Assembly: GCF_055900595.2 (NCBI RefSeq) | Contig: NZ_CM148325.1 | Direction: 5' to 3' (one strand) | Length of the DNA: 64,000 nucleotides | Part shown: piece by piece, positions 25,504-38,576 of the stretch | How the letters are laid out: the number at the start of each line of letters is the position of its first letter | Numbering within the stretch: position 1 is the first letter of the stretch | The notes under the pieces: model-generated | Databases searched by the model: none | What the model was told of the DNA's origin: nothing | The model's input: the letters and a program-made list of their open reading frames with translations, nothing else | Position numbers and translations under genes: made by a program

Positions 25504-25712
25504 TATTATTTAAATATATGGTGTAATCATTTGTATTCATAATATAAATGATTGCATCCTATTTTATTTGTTGAAACGCAAATGTAAGTGAGCGAAATCA
25601 CTGTGTTATAAATTTAAGATTATATTTAGTTTTCCTGGCGTGCCTTTCTGAATAATCTGGAATAGAATATTAGAGCTAATTTTAAGCATTATTAATGTCA
25701 CAGGGGATGTGC

Positions 25713-27887
25713 ATGCTGCGATGGAAACGCTGTATTATGCTAACATTTATCTCTGGAGCTGCTTTTGCGGCTCCAGAGATAAATGTTGAGCATAAAGAAT
25801 CGTTACCTGATTTAGGTAGTCAGGCCGCACAACAGGAAGAGCAAACTAACAAGGGTAAATCGCTAAAAGAGCGTGGTGCCGATTACGTCATTAACTCTGC
25901 CACGCAAGGGTTTGAAAACCTGACACCCGAGGCGCTGGAGTCCCAGGCCAGAAGCTATCTGCAAAGTCAAATTACCTCTACGACACAATCTTATATTGAG
26001 GATACACTCTCCCCCTACGGTAAGGTCCGAACGAATCTTTCTCTTGGTCAGGGCGGCGATCTGGATGGCAGTTCCATCGATTATTTTGTTCCCTGGTATG
26101 ATAATCAAACTACTGTTTATTTCAGCCAATTTTCTGCACAACGAAAAGAAGATCGTACGATCGGGAATATTGGGCTTGGTGTAAGACATAATTTTGATAG
26201 ATGGTTATTGGGTGGAAATATATTTTATGATTATGACTTTACCCGTGGGCATCGCCGTTTAGGTTTAGGCGCCGAAGCGTGGACTGATTATTTAAAATTC
26301 TCTGGCAACTATTATCACCCGCTTTCTGACTGGAAAGACTCCGAAGATTTCGATTTTTATGAGGAGCGCCCGGCGCGCGGCTGGGATATTCGCGCCGAAG
26401 CCTGGCTACCTGCTTACCCGCAGCTTGGCGGTAAAATCGTTTTCGAACAGTATTACGGTGATGAAGTCGCGCTTTTTGGCACCGATAATCTGGAGAATGA
26501 TCCCTTCGCCGTCACGCTGGGTGTGAAATACCAGCCCCTACCACTCATTGCCGTAGGAACGGATTTCAAAGCCGGCACTGGCGATAATACCGATCTTTCT
26601 GTTAACGCAACGCTGAACTACCAGTTTGGTGTCCCGCTCAAAGACCAGCTTGATCCTGACAAAGTGAGCGCGGCTCACTCGCTCATGGGCAGCCGTCACG
26701 ACTTTGTTGAACGTAACAACTTTATTGTTCTGGAATACAAAGAGAAAGATCCCCTCGATGTCACTTTGTGGCTGAAAGCCGATGCGACGAATGAACATCC
26801 CGAGTGCGTGATTAAAGATACGCCAGAAGCAGCCATCGGGCTGGAAAAATGTAAGTGGACCATTAACGCGCTCATTAATCATCACTACAAAATCGTTGCT
26901 GCCTCCTGGCAGGCGAAAAACAATGCTGCACGTACGCTGGTGATGCCGGTTATCAAAGAAAATACGCTTACCGAAGGGAACAACAATCACTGGAATCTGG
27001 TGCTGCCTGCCTGGCAGTACAGCTCTGATAAAGCCGACCAGGAAAAACTCAATACCTGGCGGGTACGCCTGTCGCTGGAAGATGAAAAGGGCAATCGGCA
27101 GAACTCCGGCGTGGTGGAAATTACCGTTCAGCAGGACCGTAAAATTGAGCTCATTGTTAACAACATCGCCAATGTACCGGATGAGAACAATCACAGCCAC
27201 GAAGCCAGCGCGCAAGCGGATGGTGTAGATGGTGTCGTCATGGATCTCGACGTTACCGATAGTTTTGGCGACAACACTGACCGTAACGGTAATGTCTTGC
27301 CGCAGGATAATCTCAGCCCGCAGCTGTTTGACGCCAATGATAAAAAAGTGACGCTGACAAATAAACCCTGCACCACCGAGGTGCCGTGCGTTTTTATCGC
27401 CAAACAAGATAAAGAAAAGGGGACCGTTACGCTCTCCAGTACGTTGCCCGGCACCTTCCGCTGGAAAGCGAAAGCCGCCCCTTATGATGACAGTAACTAT
27501 GTTGACGTAACGTTCCTGGGTTCTGACATCGGCGGGCTGAATGCTTTTATCTACCGCGTTGGTGCAGCTAAGCCCGTCAATCTTATCGGCAACAAAGAAC
27601 CGTTGCCTCTCAATAGCCGCTATCGCTTTGTGCTGTGGCGCGACGCTAACAAAGACGGCGTGTTCCAGCTTTCTGAGAAGCTCACTGACGATGAGATGAA
27701 ACAGTATGACTATCAGTGGGAATTCACGGGGCATAGCGTAAATGGCAATACCGGTGCGCAAACCAATACCACGAACGTCGATATAGAGATCCCGGCAACC
27801 AACAAGGAAGCGGCAGCAAAGTTTAGTGCCCAGGTAACCGATGGCGTGCAGGGATACGGTTTGCAGGTCAATTACAGCAAGAAATAG
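25713..27887 (+). CDS. sinH: intimin/invasin-family inverse autotransporter (SinH-like)
   Basis: ORF 25695..27887; ATG 25713 has SD AGGGGA and gives signal peptide MLRWKRCIMLTFISGAAFA; N-terminal beta-barrel-type region with Ig-like passenger domains; island position between yfgJ and xseA. Confidence 0.75.
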   Translation: MLRWKRCIMLTFISGAAFAAPEINVEHKESLPDLGSQAAQQEEQTNKGKSLKERGADYVINSATQGFENLTPEALESQARSYLQSQITSTTQSYIEDTLSPYGKVRTNLSLGQGGDLDGSSIDYFVPWYDNQTTVYFSQFSAQRKEDRTIGNIGLGVRHNFDRWLLGGNIFYDYDFTRGHRRLGLGAEAWTDYLKFSGNYYHPLSDWKDSEDFDFYEERPARGWDIRAEAWLPAYPQLGGKIVFEQYYGDEVALFGTDNLENDPFAVTLGVKYQPLPLIAVGTDFKAGTGDNTDLSVNATLNYQFGVPLKDQLDPDKVSAAHSLMGSRHDFVERNNFIVLEYKEKDPLDVTLWLKADATNEHPECVIKDTPEAAIGLEKCKWTINALINHHYKIVAASWQAKNNAARTLVMPVIKENTLTEGNNNHWNLVLPAWQYSSDKADQEKLNTWRVRLSLEDEKGNRQNSGVVEITVQQDRKIELIVNNIANVPDENNHSHEASAQADGVDGVVMDLDVTDSFGDNTDRNGNVLPQDNLSPQLFDANDKKVTLTNKPCTTEVPCVFIAKQDKEKGTVTLSSTLPGTFRWKAKAAPYDDSNYVDVTFLGSDIGGLNAFIYRVGAAKPVNLIGNKEPLPLNSRYRFVLWRDANKDGVFQLSEKLTDDEMKQYDYQWEFTGHSVNGNTGAQTNTTNVDIEIPATNKEAAAKFSAQVTDGVQGYGLQVNYSKK

Positions 27888-27942
27888 GGTCGGCGCCATG
27901 GCTGATCGGGCCACCGCTGAATATTAATCAAGGAGAGTGTTT

Positions 27943-28935
27943 ATGAAACCTGATATGAAACGTGGCCTGACAAAAGTCGCGCTCGCGTTGATGCTGGCTG
28001 GATACTGTGCCGTACCAGCCGCTATGGCGGAAGATGCCGCCTGGGTCGCCAGTGGAGCGACCGCTGAATTCGAAGGGACTATACCCTGGCTCTATCGCGA
28101 AGGGGGGAATGCCACGATTAACTCGGAAGATGCGGATCACATTAAAGTGACGTCTGATGGTAAAGGGACCCGCCCTGCAGGTAGCGAGACGGATAAACGC
28201 CTTTACTCAGGGGATACCATCACGCTGGGATGGGATATCGGCGATACCGAAGGGGATGTTGATGATGGTCCCGCAGGCATTGATGCGAAAACGACGGCCA
28301 CTATCAAATGGTACAGCTACAGCAATAATGCGGGTGGCGATAAAACGGAGCTGACCGCAGCGGCAGGCAAGACGAGTTATAAACTCACTGATGACGATCG
28401 TGGGCGTTATATCGGTGTTGAAATCCAGCCCATCACCCAGACCGGTAATCCCTTCGAGGGAACGTCGCTGACTCTGCTGGATATTTCAACGGCCAGCGGT
28501 GGCGGCAGCGATACGGACAATGTCGATCCCGGCCCGGTTGTGAACCAGAATCTGAAAGTTGCCATCTTCGAGAAAGGCACCACTACCAACCTTATCGGTG
28601 GTAACACGGCCATTGCGCTTAATAAAACGTATGTGGCCAAACTGTACTCGGATGAAAACCAGAACGATAAATACGACGCAGGTACGGATATGGACGTTAC
28701 CGCTAACTATGACTTTGCATGGGTCTTTAACGGTAACAGTAAACAACTTGCTGCGGCGGGCGGTATTGCTAATGCCAGCTTCGATAACAATGACATTGTT
28801 ATCCCGCAAACTAACGAAGAAGCAAGAACCAGCCTTAACGGTAGTGATCGTAATGGTAAGAGTGGTCTTGCGATCCCGGCAAACGGCGACGGCGTTCAGG
28901 GCTATACGCTGTCTATCATTTACAAACACCACTAA
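27943..28935 (+). CDS. secreted SinI-like protein sharing a C-terminal module with SinH
   Basis: ORF 27937..28935; ATG 27943 preceded by AGGAG; signal peptide; C-terminus DGVQGYTLSIIYKHH parallels the SinH C-terminus DGVQGYGLQVNYSKK. Confidence 0.7.
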   Translation: MKPDMKRGLTKVALALMLAGYCAVPAAMAEDAAWVASGATAEFEGTIPWLYREGGNATINSEDADHIKVTSDGKGTRPAGSETDKRLYSGDTITLGWDIGDTEGDVDDGPAGIDAKTTATIKWYSYSNNAGGDKTELTAAAGKTSYKLTDDDRGRYIGVEIQPITQTGNPFEGTSLTLLDISTASGGGSDTDNVDPGPVVNQNLKVAIFEKGTTTNLIGGNTAIALNKTYVAKLYSDENQNDKYDAGTDMDVTANYDFAWVFNGNSKQLAAAGGIANASFDNNDIVIPQTNEEARTSLNGSDRNGKSGLAIPANGDGVQGYTLSIIYKHH

Positions 28936-29043
28936 TGCGCACAACAGCATTCCCTTACGGGAATGCTGTTTTCGCCTGTTTTGCTTAGCGACGCGTTAAG
29001 CAAAACAGGTTGATGTTTTGTTTATCATGCTGGAGTTTTCTAC

Positions 29044-32000
29044 ATGTCGGTATGTCTGAAACCAGGGAAAATCATTATGCTTCTGGGCATGTTGGCAGCT
29101 TTTATGCTGTCTGACTTTGCACGGGCAGGGGCGGAATGGCAGACATATCCTGATTCTACAGGCGAGTTTAACGGAACCGTTCCTTTTGCCGACAGCGCCA
29201 GCGTACCCGTCTATCAGGGCAGTGTTCAGCTTAATCCTGCTGAATCTCATGATGTCGGGTTTTCTGCTAAACCGAATGAATTTAGCGTTGACGATGACGC
29301 TGCTAACCTGATTGTCGCTAATCCTCAGGACAATGAAGGCGACCAGTTTTCCACACCACCTGCGCTGCGCTGGGAAAATCAAACACCCCCTACCGTCAGC
29401 CTGGTGTGGGCCGATGCCGCCACGCCCGATGTGCCCCTTAACCCACAACCTATTGCTAACCGTAGCTTTTGCGCTCAGGGGCTGGCCGGACGCTCGCTGG
29501 TGGCCTGGCCGCAGATTGATGCGCAGCAAACCCTCCCACTGCTCTACCTGTTGACCTCGACCGGCTATCCCTATGCGGGGACGGTGGCGCTGGTGGACCA
29601 GAAAGTGACCCTGAACATCGCGCCCGCGCAGGGCGATTTAATCTCGGTGAGCGCCAGCGGTTATAACGAAACGATCGCGGCGGCAAAAACCACCGTTGGC
29701 GACACCATCACGCTCACCGTCACCACTAAAGATTGTCAGGGCAACGTCGCGGGTAATATTCCGTTTATTATCAAACGTAAAGATGCTGAAAATCGCCAGG
29801 GGGCAGTGAATAATAGTGCGCCAGTGGTACTGGATAGCACCGAGTTAACGACGACGGCTACCGAATACCATGGCACCTCTGATGCCAACGGCACGGCCAC
29901 CATCACGGTGAGCCAACCGAACGGCCCTGGCGTCAAAACGCCACTGGTGGTCAGCATTTCCGGCATTGCGCAAACCAGCGAAACCGCGGTGATTTTTACG
30001 GTGCTCACCAGCCCGGACGCGGCGCAGGCTACGATGTGGGGCCATATGGCGGAAACGGTAGAAGCGCACGGTTACACCTTCAGTCGACCAAAGCTGGCGG
30101 CAGAAGTCAGCAATGAAAGCGCCACGGTCGTCGATCACAACGAAACCTGGTCCACCTTCACCTGGAGCGGCGCAGATAACCACTGCACCGTGCTGCCCGG
30201 CATGCGCCACTTCGGCGCGCTGGCGACCGTTATCCCCACATCGGTGCAGACAGTCCTTGGCTGGCCGATGCAGGGGGATTATTACTGGTCATCGCTGGCG
30301 GGCACCACCGGGCAGCACCATGCGGCGGATGTCTCTAACCGTGGTGAAACGCAAAAGCCGGATAGCACCCCGTTTCTTGTAAGCTGCGTGGATAAACCCG
30401 CGCCTGATGTCGAGCCGAAAATCGTCCTTACGCCCGAAAACTATGATGATACGGCACAGGCGATGAAATCGCAGGTGGGCGAAGACGCCACGATGCGTCT
30501 GACGATCACCGACAATAAAAATAACGATCAACCACTGGCGTATTACTACTTCTCGCTGCATCTGGATGACGGCGTTAACCGCAAAAATCAAACCGATTCC
30601 GCCTGGGAAGCCCATCCGGTGCAGATTACTGGTGGTTCGAATTTGCAACAGGTTGATGCTCACACCTATGAAGGCATGACCGATGTCAACGGTCAGGCTT
30701 CGCTAACCCTGAGTCAGCCCGACGGCGCAGGCGTGAAAACCCATATCACGGCGAAAATGCGCAGCAATTTTACGGCTACAGATGCCAAAGACGTGATTTT
30801 TACTGTGATCACCAGCCCGGACAGCGACAAGGCGCGGATGTGGGGCCATATGCGCGGCATTGTTGTATCTGGCAGTCTGTTCAAACGCCCAGTGCTGGCG
30901 GATGAAACTGAGCATGAACTGGGATCGGTGCGGGAAAATAACGAAGACTGGGCGCTGTTCGATCAAGACACCAGTATGCAGGCTGAATGCGGCGTCGGCC
31001 ATACGCCAAGTCAGAGTGGGCTGGAAAGCCTTTTTTCAGCCCATCCCGGTAACGCGATTGGCACTGAGTATGGCTGGCCCACCGCACAACAGAACTACCT
31101 AAGCGCGGTGGAGCAAGCCACGCATTCATCGGTGAATTTGGCGAACGGAAACGTCGACAGCTACCCCGGCTTTAAGCGAAATTACCTCTCCTGTTCGGGC
31201 AATGAGATGGTCGCGAAGGTTGAAGTGAGCACCGATCACGATGTCACCCCTGGCACCAAAGCGCAGGCCAAAGTGGGAGACACCGTCGTGATGACCGTGC
31301 GTACGGTTAACGCGCTCAATAATACCCCCGTTCCCTTTACTGCCTTCACCATCACTAAAGGCATGGGGTATAACCGAGCGGGGCTGGTGAGCGGGTTTGA
31401 TGACCCGAGCAGCGGCGCAATCTCGATGAATGGCACGCAATACGGCACATCTCAGCCGTCGATGGTCTACACAGGTACGACAGATGCACAAGGCGTGGCA
31501 ACGGTCGAAATAGAGCAACCCCAGGGGGTGGGGTTAAGAACCGTGCTGAGCATTACGCCGGTCAATTCCCATCTACCAAATGCCATTAATTACAATGTTA
31601 TTTTTACCACCCCAACCAGCCCGGATGTTAGTGGGGCGCAGATGTGGGGCCATATGGATGAAACGATTACCGTTGATTCATTAACCTTTACCCGGCCTAA
31701 GCTGGCAGCAGAAATCACCAGTCCGGATGGCACATTAACGGAAAAAAACGAAGTCTGGGCGCGCGTTAGCCAGGCCAGTACGGCCATTACCAGTAAAGGC
31801 GGTTGCGGAACCAATATGCTGCCGCGCCGCTCCCAGCTCAGTGCGCTCTATGACGCTAATAACGGTAATGCGGTGCAAGCCACACACGGCTGGCCGACGC
31901 AGCGTCAGCCCTACTGGAGCAGTTCCCCCGCGGATTTAACGCCGCACAATTACACCATTGCCCTGGATAACGGCGCACAGGCCATCGGCGGCGATACGCC

Positions 32001-35000
32001 GGTTTACGTCAGTTGCCTGACGACGGCGAACAAACCTGCCAGCAGCATTACGCTGGATGTGGTTGATAACGCACAGTGGGCTGCCGGAAATAACGCGGCG
32101 AAGCTGAAAAAAGGCGAAACGCTACAGGTTAAGGTAACGGTAAAAGATGCGCAGGGTAATCCGCTCACGGATATGCCATTTAAACTGAGTCGCGGAGACG
32201 GTTATACCCGCACGGGCGAAAAACATATTGCCGGTAGTGGCGATGCGCTGGTGGCACCGGTGGTGATTAACAGTGGGCTGGCGGATGAAACGACGTTGAA
32301 CGACACCGCGGGATTTTATACTGCCATGACCGGCAGCGACGGCAGCAAAATCCTCAATATTACCCGCCCGGATACTCACGGTACCAAAACGGCGCTGACG
32401 GCGACGTTGTATTCCGATCCAACAAAAAAAGACAGCCTGGATACAATCTTTACTGTGGTCACCAGCCCGGATAGTAGCAAAGCGAAAATGTGGGGCCATA
32501 TGCCGGAAACCTTAACGGCGGCAGATGGTACCGTTTTTAAACGCCCATTGCTGATAAAGGAACTGTCGAGTCAGACCGGGCGAACAGCAATATTCGAAGA
32601 CAATGAAAACTGGGCGCTGTTTACTCAAACCCAGGCGAACTCAACCAGTAACGGCTGCGGCACTAGCTATGTTCCCACTCAGGCAGGGTTGTTGTCGTTG
32701 TTTGATAATCACGCTGGCAATACCATCAAAACCGTCCAGGGCTGGCCGGTAGTAACGCGTTATTTATCCAGCACGCCCGACAACACTGGCATGGAACAGC
32801 GTAACTACAAAGCGGTGGATCTCGGCAATGGCACCAGTGCCATGGTGTCAACGTCGACACTGGATCTACTGACCTGCCAAACCACGCCAGTCACCACGGT
32901 GAGCCAGATTCTGCTGGAAGCGGCAGATCCTGCGGCTCTGATTTATGTTGACGATACACTGAGTGTGGTTAAAGCCAAAAAAGGCGAAGAGTCGGTAGTG
33001 CGCGTCACCACGAAAGATGCGCAAGGTAACCCGGTTGGCAATGCGGCGTTTATTCTGAAACGTGCCACCAGCATAAACCGGAGGTATACATCAGCGACAG
33101 CGAGTGTAGGTGCGCTGACTGTAACCGATGCCTGGGGAAATACGCGGAGTAATTTTCAGGCAACAACTGAAATGATCTATGGCGTGACGGGGGCTGACGG
33201 GTCGACAACCTTTACGCTGAAACAGGATAACAGTACCGGGTTAAGAACCGATCTCACGGCATCACTGGATGGCGTCAGCAGCGTTCAGGCGACCCTCCCG
33301 ATGGTCTTTACCGTGGTAACCAGTCCAGATTCTCCTAAAGCGAATTTTTGGGGACACATGCCTGAAACGGTAACGGCCGCTGATGGCATGACGTATAAGC
33401 GACCATTACTGTTTAAAGAACTTACCAATAACTATGCACGCTATAGCACTTTTGAGAATGGTGAAGATTGGGCAAGATTCAGTGTGGTTCAGTCAAATAA
33501 CACCGATATGGATGGATGCGGTGCAGAGTATATGCCGACACTGGATGGCCTGCAGTCCTTGTACAGTGCCAATAGTGGTAATGCGATGAGTACAGTGCAG
33601 GGATGGCCGGTAGCTAATAGTTATCTCACCAATACACCGAGTGATACGCAACCCAGTAACCGTTATTACAATGTGGTGCAACTGAATTCCGGCGCGGTTT
33701 CTCAAATCGTGACCACCGTGCTGGCATTACAAACTTGTCGCACAACGCCTGCGGTTATTGCCAGCCAGGTGTCTCTGGAGCCTGCGGACGCCACGCAATT
33801 CGTTAAGGTTGACGATACTCTGAGCGCCATTAAGGTGAAAAAAGGCGATGAGGTTGTTATTCGCGTCACGACCAAAGATGCGCAAGGAAACCCGGTGGGT
33901 AATACGCCGTTTACACTGAAGCGTAGCAGTTCTTTCAATCGCCAGAATGCATTAGTGACGATGCAGACGGTTTCGGTGACACCCGCAGCGGCCAGTACAG
34001 TTGATACCAATGCATCGGCCACCGTGTATGGCGTGACCGGGCCAGACGGAACCACCACGATGACACTCCGACAGGATGCGTCTACTGGACTCAAAACCGA
34101 CTTTTATGCTCTGTTGAACGATACCGGCGTGTCGTCGAACACCTTGCCAGTGATCTTCACCGTCGTCACCAGCCCGGATACACCGCTGGCGGCCAACTGG
34201 GGGCATATGGCGGAAACCTTTACCAGCAGCAAGGGCGTCACCTTCAAACGGCCTTTCCTCAAAGCTGAACTTTCTGGTGGTACGGCGGTAACGACCAATA
34301 ATGAAGTCTGGTCGCGCCTGACAGCAACGGAGAAAACGGATGCCAGCAAGGCGGGTTGTGATGAGAGTTATCAACCGCTGATGACTGACATGCAGGGGTT
34401 GTATGCGGATTACCCTAACAACCAGTTGGGCACGGTGCTCGGCTTGCCGACTTCCGCCGGGTATATGTGGGCCTACGACATGATGACGGTTTCTGGCAGC
34501 AGCTGGAGCAACCAGGCATATTCGCTCGTTAATGGTCAGACAGTTCAGGCATCGTCCAGTTATACGGCGGTAGTGATGTGCCTGGTGGAACCGCATACCG
34601 TTCCGGCGATGATAGAGATCACTTCAACAGCACAGGATGCGGCAAAAACGGTCAGCAATGGTGGTCGACCGAGCGCCGTAGCGAAGAAAGGTGAGACGAT
34701 TCCGCTGACGGTGACCGTACGTGATAGCACCGGGAATCCGGTACCCTACGCCGACTTTACCCTCACGCGTGGAACGACGCTGGATCGCTCGAAAGCAACC
34801 GTTAACTCGAGTGCGGACGATCTTACCGTGAAGTCATTGATACCCGCGAACAGCGACGCTGGGCTGACGGCAAATGGGGCAAAAGTGCTCAGAACAACGG
34901 GCAGTGATGGCACTGCCACCTTTGAAGTGAGCCAGAATGCCACGACAGGTCTGGCGACACCGATAACCGTCACGCTGGCGCGCGATACAACCAAAACCGC

Positions 35001-37131
35001 CACGCTGGATGTTATCTACACGGTGATAACCAGCCCGGACTCACCGAGCGCGAAATTCTGGGGACACATGCCGGACACCTTTACCAGTTCGGCAGGCGTC
35101 ACCTTCAGACGACCGCTCCTGAAAGCCGAAGCGACTTCAGGGTCATCGATTAGCACTAACGGTAATGGTGAAGTGTGGTCGTATATGAGCAACGTTCAAA
35201 ATTTAACATCGACAGATTGTCCGCTGGAGAATCAACCGCGCAGTAATGAATTGTTGGATTTGTATAATGATCATCCCAACGGCGCGATAATGACTGACCT
35301 GGGGCTGCCGATATATGCAGGCAAGTGGTGGGCTTATGATATGGTCATGCCGGATTTATATACGTGGCAGTATCAGACTGTCAGCCTGAGCGCAGGAGAT
35401 ATCGCGAAGAGCTCGGCAAACAACGCGCTGATGCTTTGCCTGGCGAAGCCGCATCCGGCAGGCGTCAGCGTAATGTTGACGTCATCCGCAATGGATAACG
35501 CCAGAACCCTCAGTAATGGCGGGCGACCCAGCGCGTCAGTGAAAAAAGGTAACCCACTGCCAATTGTGGTGACGGTCAAAGATCGTGATGGCAACCCGCT
35601 GGCGGGAGAGGCCGTGACGCTCAGGCGTGGTTCAGCGATGAGTCGTTCAGGAGCAGGAGTGGGCACGCCGGCAAATGCAATGACGTTGACAGAATTGACA
35701 CCTGTGTCGGCGGAGTTTTCTCTGGCCGCACACGATACGCAATGGCAAGGTTTCACCGGTAGTGATGGTACGGCCACTTTCAATGTTGAACAGCCTGAGA
35801 CCATCGGCCTGGCTATCTCGTTCACCGCTATACTGGCGCGAGATGTCGCAACTACCAGCGTCATTGATGCGATCTTTACCGTCGTCACCAGCCCGGATTC
35901 CGCAATGGCGACCTACTGGGGCCATATGCCGGATACGGTAACGGCGGAAAACGGCGTGGTCTTTGAACGGCCTAAATTGTTGAAAGAGCTGCCGTCGAGC
36001 GCCGGAGTCAGTCAGGTGACGGATAACAATGAAGTGTGGCCGTTGTTTAAGGCAACGCAAAGGGAAGATAGCAGCCTCAGTCCTTGTGAAGCGGCACGTC
36101 GGCCATTGAGCGATGATTTATTATCGCTCTACGCGCGCTATCCGGGGAACACGCTGACGACTCAAATCGGCTGGTCTACGAAGTATGCATGGTGGGCACT
36201 GGATAACAAGCAGGGGAATGCCCTGGTTGTCAGTCTGAATAATGGTTTTGAGTCGTCGACGGCGAGTACGGGGTATCAGGGATGTCTGGTCAATCCCCGC
36301 GCGACCGTCTCCAGCGTCACGCTGACATCGACGGCGATAGATGCCACTACGCAGGCGGCGAAGGTAAAAAAAGGTGAAGCCGCGCCCGTCGTTGTTACCG
36401 TAAAAGACAGCGCCGGGAAGCCGGTACCTAATGTCGCTTTCACCTTAAAACGTGGTGATGCCGTGCCGCGTAACAGCGGGGCGACGTTGTATGGTGATGT
36501 TGCGGCGATGGATGATATGACGGTACAACCTGCCAGCGGGACGGTGGTAACGCTGGCTGACAGTGGGAATACGATCGACGGTGTGACAGGGGCGGACGGT
36601 ACGGCAAGTTTTGCCGTTCGTCAGGATAATACGCCAGGATATAAAACGCCGTTGACGGTGACGCTGACGGATAACGCCACAATAACGGCGACGCTGGATA
36701 CGATTTTCACCGTGCCGACCAGCCCGAATGTCGCCACGGCGTATTTCTGGGGGCATATGGCGGATACCGCCACCGTAAGTGGCAAGACGTTACATCGCCC
36801 GCTATTGAAATCAGAGTTGCCGTCAGGGGCTACAGCGGCAGTAGCGCCAACGGTGAATAATGAAATCTGGGCGCTGGCACATGTGATCGATGCTCAAAAA
36901 TGGGATATTGCAAAGCAGTGCGGTGACTTTAGTAGAGCACCGAGCTATACCGATTTACAGTCATTGCATAGCGGTTTTAGCGCGCTGGGATGGCCATCAT
37001 CGATAAGCTTCCCCTATTTCTCTACCGATCGGGCCGGTTCGTTCTATTGTGGTATGGATGAAGGGGCGGGGACACAAAACTGCGGTATTCAGGCATCCAG
37101 TACCGCAGGGTTTGCGACTTGTTTCCAGTAG
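29044..37131 (+). CDS. ratA: giant repetitive secreted/surface protein (RatA-like)
   Basis: 2695-aa ORF with N-terminal signal peptide; nine tandem ~270-aa units each carrying FTV(V/L)TSPD..(M/F)WGHM motifs. Confidence 0.8.
29650..37100 (+). repeat. nine in-frame tandem coding repeats (~0.81-0.86 kb period) within the ratA-like gene
   Basis: WGHM signature recurs near nt 30033, 30838, 31642, 32490, 33347, 34197, 35058, 35917 and 36757. Confidence 0.8.
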
Positions 37132-37178
37132 TCTTATCGGGTCTGTAAGCGGGGGAAAGTCTGGTACGCAATACGTCT

Positions 37179-38576
<1,398 letters not shown>

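Follow-up and report, generated by a model that had tools for sequence, protein, structure and literature searches.

Nine tandem pairs of Ig-like and InvE-type adhesion domains make up a RatA-like protein encoded in a sinH-sinI-ratA island

The 2695-aa protein encoded by the ratA-like gene in a 64,000-nt stretch of contig NZ_CM148325.1 (the window, to which all positions refer) was found to consist of nine modules arranged back to back behind a family-specific N-terminal region of ~165 aa, each module being an Ig-like BIg21 domain of ~140 aa followed by an InvE_AD adhesion domain of ~135 aa. Both this architecture and the identity of the protein are already known, its parts being catalogued parts of the E. 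coli RatA-like giant surface protein. Taken as a whole, the evidence described below makes it probable that this protein of the ila island is a multivalent adhesin that reaches the cell surface, or is set free there, with the aid of SinH. The gene and its N-terminal features are as follows.

29044..37131, + strand: ratA-like gene, 2695 aa and stop codon (ORF call, NCBIfam NF011844, identical NCBI protein)
29044..29127, + strand: predicted Sec signal peptide, aa 1-28 (ending ...SDFARA, followed by GA), as read from the sequence
29134..29193, + strand: conserved motif at the mature N-terminus, aa 31-50, common to the SinI family
29191..29619, + strand: N-terminal beta-sandwich domain, aa ~50-192, without a Pfam family and specific to the Rat family

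The ATG of the gene is preceded by a GGAG ribosome-binding site located 9 nt upstream. In the NCBIfam search, the protein scored 5420 bits against the "RatA-like protein" equivalog NF011844 (cut-off 3870) with end-to-end coverage (residues 3-2695 on positions 1-2683 of the 2683-position profile). NCBI also contains a protein of 100% identity (P0030), which is named RatA-like or 'adhesion domain-containing protein'. The scores against the Salmonella RatA equivalog NF011843 (1978 bits) and the RatB equivalog NF011842 (2339 bits) remained under the respective cut-offs of 3700 and 4079. Judged from these profiles, its relation to Salmonella RatA/RatB is that of a paralogue or homologue in another equivalog. 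Residues 7-21 were modelled as a helix with low pLDDT, and no lipobox was recognized upon reading the signal peptide region; likewise, sequence reading and Pfam revealed neither a beta-barrel nor an LPXTG-type, lipobox or other anchor in the protein.

The repetitive nature of the remainder was evident at several levels. WGHM occurs nine times (aa 332, 600, 868, 1150, 1436, 1719, 2006, 2292 and 2569) at spacings of 268-287 aa, corresponding to 804-861 nt, with an expectation of 0.001 copies in a composition-matched random protein. In the DNA, nine copies of a 66-nt core (IFTVxTSPD...WGHM) likewise follow one another, spaced by 804, 804, 846, 858, 849, 861, 858 and 831 nt. Tandem Repeats Finder reported no array in 29000-37200, because the unit copies are too diverged. 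The Pfam search identified nine stretches each of BIg21 (PF05688, former DUF824; E 1e-205, 670 bits, cut-off 27.4) and InvE_AD (PF05689, former DUF823; E 1e-285, 933 bits, cut-off 32), which alternate without gaps along the protein, and a unit HMM gave nine contiguous envelopes over aa 193-2695 (nt 29620-37128).

29620..30393, + strand: unit 1, aa 193-450 (BIg21 to aa 321, InvE_AD aa 322-448)
30400..31200, + strand: unit 2, aa 453-719 (Ig to aa 589, adhesion domain aa 590-717)
31201..32022, + strand: unit 3, aa 720-993 (Ig to aa 857, adhesion domain aa 858-991)
32023..32883, + strand: unit 4, aa 994-1280 (Ig to aa 1139, adhesion domain aa 1140-1278)
32884..33744, + strand: unit 5, aa 1281-1567 (Ig to aa 1425, adhesion domain aa 1426-1565; structure modelled)
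33745..34587, + strand: unit 6, aa 1568-1848 (Ig to aa 1708, adhesion domain aa 1709-1846)
34591..35445, + strand: unit 7, aa 1850-2134 (Ig to aa 1995, adhesion domain aa 1996-2132)
35449..36291, + strand: unit 8, aa 2136-2416 (Ig to aa 2281, adhesion domain aa 2282-2414)
36295..37128, + strand: unit 9, aa 2418-2695 (Ig to aa 2558, adhesion domain aa 2559-2693)

These results were in good agreement with a preceding sequence-only reading, which had counted nine WGHM-containing units at a 0.81-0.86 kb period, placed the array at 29650-37100, essentially the range of the HMM, and described each unit as an Ig-like domain followed by a second conserved module, now assigned to the two Pfam families. 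The conserved WGHM, RP.L..E, Cys and GWP residues that it listed were all present in the unit alignments, in which TSP, WGHM, RP.L..E, E.W, one Cys and GWP proved invariant; with the unit profile tiling aa 193-2695 back to back, these motifs do belong to a periodic domain repeat. Pairwise, the units share 29-46% aa identity and the adhesion domains alone 30-51%. Global inter-unit DNA identities of ~70% were discarded as an artefact of permissive gap scoring.

With respect to the adhesion domain, unit 1 aligned by sequence to PDB 5N40 (E 2e-33), and the model of unit 5 exhibited similarity to the C-type-lectin-like fold, the fold type of adhesin tip domains. The canonical Ca2+/sugar-binding motifs of C-type lectins are missing, EPN, QPD and WND being absent from all nine adhesion domains. 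Each domain carries one conserved Cys pair, and that of unit 9, with which the protein ends in a C-terminal tip, has an extra pair (four Cys instead of two). The segment following GWP up to the last Cys was the most variable and indel-richest part of the domain.

Comparison among Escherichia alleles, which carry 8, 9 or 11 units, provided insight into the age of the array. When alleles were compared, each unit matched the one at its own position at 44-99%, with two exceptions, versus 36-55% for the next-best unit, and such positional orthology indicates that the array is old. Interior units (U3, U5, U6 or U7) have been lost in some alleles, whereas U1, U2 and U9 are kept in all. The modules thus appear to be ancient paralogues subject to occasional loss or gain of an interior unit, which bears out the earlier view of a diverged, old array. 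The closest complete genome shares 97% DNA identity with the present allele; at the protein level, identity was 83-85% to the commonest close allele and 66% to another large allele group, and divergence formed a mosaic, with dS ranging from 0.08 to 1.77 unit by unit. In the flanking region, dS of the downstream xseA was 0.46 versus one strain, which raised the question of whether the window belongs to another species than E. coli; this was rejected because several E. coli genomes match guaBA at 100% identity. The selection acting on the protein is purifying: by the Nei-Gojobori method, applied to each domain and sub-region in comparison with two alleles, dN/dS was 0.16-0.19 overall, with 0.20 for the adhesion domains versus 0.17 for the Ig domains. 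Between alleles, omega was 0.32 in the post-GWP segment versus 0.09 in the domain head, and no positive selection was seen in this two-allele comparison, every domain and sub-region value being <0.6.

The gene is the third of the known 'ila' (CS54-like) island, whose other members lie immediately upstream.

25695..27887, + strand: sinH, intimin-like inverse autotransporter (NCBIfam NF033423, 1474 bits, cut-off 999; RefSeq annotation of orthologues)
27937..28935, + strand: sinI, SinI-family autotransporter-associated protein (NCBIfam NF040711, 377 bits, cut-off 165)
28944-28971 and 28974-29010, + strand: two terminator-like hairpins in the sinI-ratA intergenic region (pattern match only)

Owing to these hairpins, co-expression of ratA with sinH and sinI is not guaranteed. 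Downstream lie xseA and guaB, and the order sinH-sinI-ratA between the der/zinc-ribbon gene and xseA is the same in RefSeq E. coli genomes. At least 80% of the stretch, with the island nearly whole, is carried by 752 of the 5426 complete E. coli genomes, and throughout Escherichia the gene stays linked to sinH and sinI. In the Salmonella CS54 island, ratA and ratB adjoin sinI and sinH (PMC3739510; PMC4943183), while shdA and ratB are absent from E. coli (PMC3739510). According to published summaries (PMC12928451, citing Shea et al. 2022), uropathogenic E. coli deleted for ila genes are attenuated in a mouse model of urinary-tract infection.

The N-terminal 215 aa were modelled as the signal helix and a small beta-sandwich. 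Between the two, the motif of about 20 residues common to the Rat and SinI families (consensus L-K-x-G-x-W-Q-x(4)-S-T-G-x-I-x-G-T-x-P) lies on a flexible lead-in to the first folded domain. Profile-profile comparison by hhalign related the RatA family to the SinI family at E 1.9e-7, and at E 1.8e-5 after removal of the signal peptides. The signal emerged only from profile against profile: a profile set against a single SinI sequence reached Prob 4%, single-sequence BLASTP searches with the RatA N-terminus yielded no significant hit in SinI or SinH, and no similarity to SinH was found. Two proteins matching in multiple stretches in the N-terminal search, the Calx-beta/RTX giant P0176 and the FG-GAP protein P0188, were rejected as composition-driven. 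The motif common to RatA and SinI may be new. It fits the published, unproven idea that SinH exports both proteins, Rat-like proteins having been proposed as SinH substrates by analogy with ZirT/ZirS (Heinz et al. 2016; PMC4943183). That it serves as a common recognition or docking signal by which SinH exports or tethers RatA and SinI is a tentative proposal, and on balance a doubtful one. If true, the island would qualify as a real branch of type Ve secretion with a two-partner-like layout, and the nine-headed RatA would be a SinH cargo, each lectin-like head being free to evolve its own ligand.

In the reading that we favour, Sec export of the protein would be followed by its display at the cell surface or its release, a step that the co-encoded SinH may aid in analogy to the ZirT/ZirS pair. 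Long and beaded, the protein would then function as a multivalent non-fimbrial adhesin, in which the Ig domains could serve as rigid spacers and the nine lectin-like heads, with the four-Cys tip domain probably outermost, would contact host or matrix ligands, resulting in avidity and possibly in several specificities. The missing anchor, the absence of EPN, QPD and WND, and the hairpins ahead of ratA speak against this reading. A secreted or released protein with a non-adhesive, SinH-independent role, for instance a soluble immune-modulating or inter-bacterial factor, would agree with the missing anchor motif, with the hairpins upstream of ratA, and with the Yersinia relative InvD, which binds antibodies and not cells (PMC6555100); we nevertheless regard it as very improbable in view of the fold, which is that of an adhesin tip domain, the N-terminal motif common with SinI, and the sinH/sinI linkage conserved across Escherichia and reported for Salmonella as well.

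Two further alternatives concern the division of labour among the nine heads. In invasin and intimin, only the tip domain is known to bind, and the RatA-like array might by analogy be a length spacer of the 'periscope' type, in which the terminal four-Cys domain alone binds and the eight interior modules set the reach beyond LPS or capsule, tuned by unit number. The extra Cys pair of the terminal domain and the differing unit numbers, with interior units lost and U1, U2 and U9 kept, would suit such a role. Typical periscope proteins possess near-identical DNA repeats that recombine easily, however, and the diverged units seen here, which form no array for Tandem Repeats Finder, do not resemble them; moreover, the interior adhesion domains retain all family-invariant residues under purifying selection matching that on the Ig domains, which speaks for a role beyond that of a filler. 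We therefore consider a mere spacer unlikely. The opposite possibility, that each of the nine domains evolved its own ligand, goes back to the sequence-only reading, which had considered different binding specificities possible, and is suggested by the divergence of the paralogous adhesion domains, by the post-GWP segment being both the most variable and the fastest-evolving part, and by related CLec-fold DUF1566/DUF823 domains, which are variable ligand-binding scaffolds of diversity-generating retroelements (DGRs; PMC5758913). Age alone would also give such divergence, though, no sign of positive selection was seen, and InvE_AD domains are without any known ligand, so that we hold full multi-specificity to be possible but lean against it. 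Against these alternatives, the SinH-aided multivalent adhesin remains our preferred explanation.

The repeat architecture itself adds nothing new, being covered by two Pfam families, a curated NCBIfam model and a crystal structure for one module, and the locus has already been studied in uropathogenic E. coli and Salmonella. The SinI-common N-terminal motif and the map of kept and lost units, on the other hand, offer concrete experimental handles. Efforts are under way to develop SinH into an antigen for an ExPEC vaccine, and the partner proteins of the locus are therefore of some practical relevance.

Among known systems, InvE of Yersinia pseudotuberculosis (PDB 5N40) is the source of the Pfam name InvE_AD. 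Sadana et al. 2017 reportedly described it as an inverse autotransporter that includes its own beta-barrel and ends in one adhesion domain. Inverse autotransporters carry an N-terminal 12-stranded beta-barrel as translocator within the same polypeptide; the RatA-like protein, in contrast, has no barrel family among its Pfam matches, the barrel residing in the neighbouring SinH, and bears nine adhesion domains interleaved with Ig domains. It similarly differs from the type Ve proteins invasin and intimin in having neither beta-barrel nor LysM and in carrying nine times the lectin-like domain that they carry once, at the terminus. The resemblance to the DUF1566/Lcl C-terminal domain (CLec-fold, Legionella Lcl; 'CLec2' targets of DGRs) was a sequence match below the Pfam cut-off. 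With periscope-type proteins it shares a variable copy number, but not the near-identity of their repeats. The BIg21 and InvE_AD repeats, the N-terminal domain and the sinI/sinH neighbours are all as in Salmonella RatA and RatB, whose models, at 1860 and 2435 aa, are long enough for about 6 and 8 units, respectively, versus 9 here. Finally, from the RatA-like protein of E. coli and E. albertii (NF011844; ila) it differs in nothing of substance, the neighbourhood, the nine units and the full-length match being the same.

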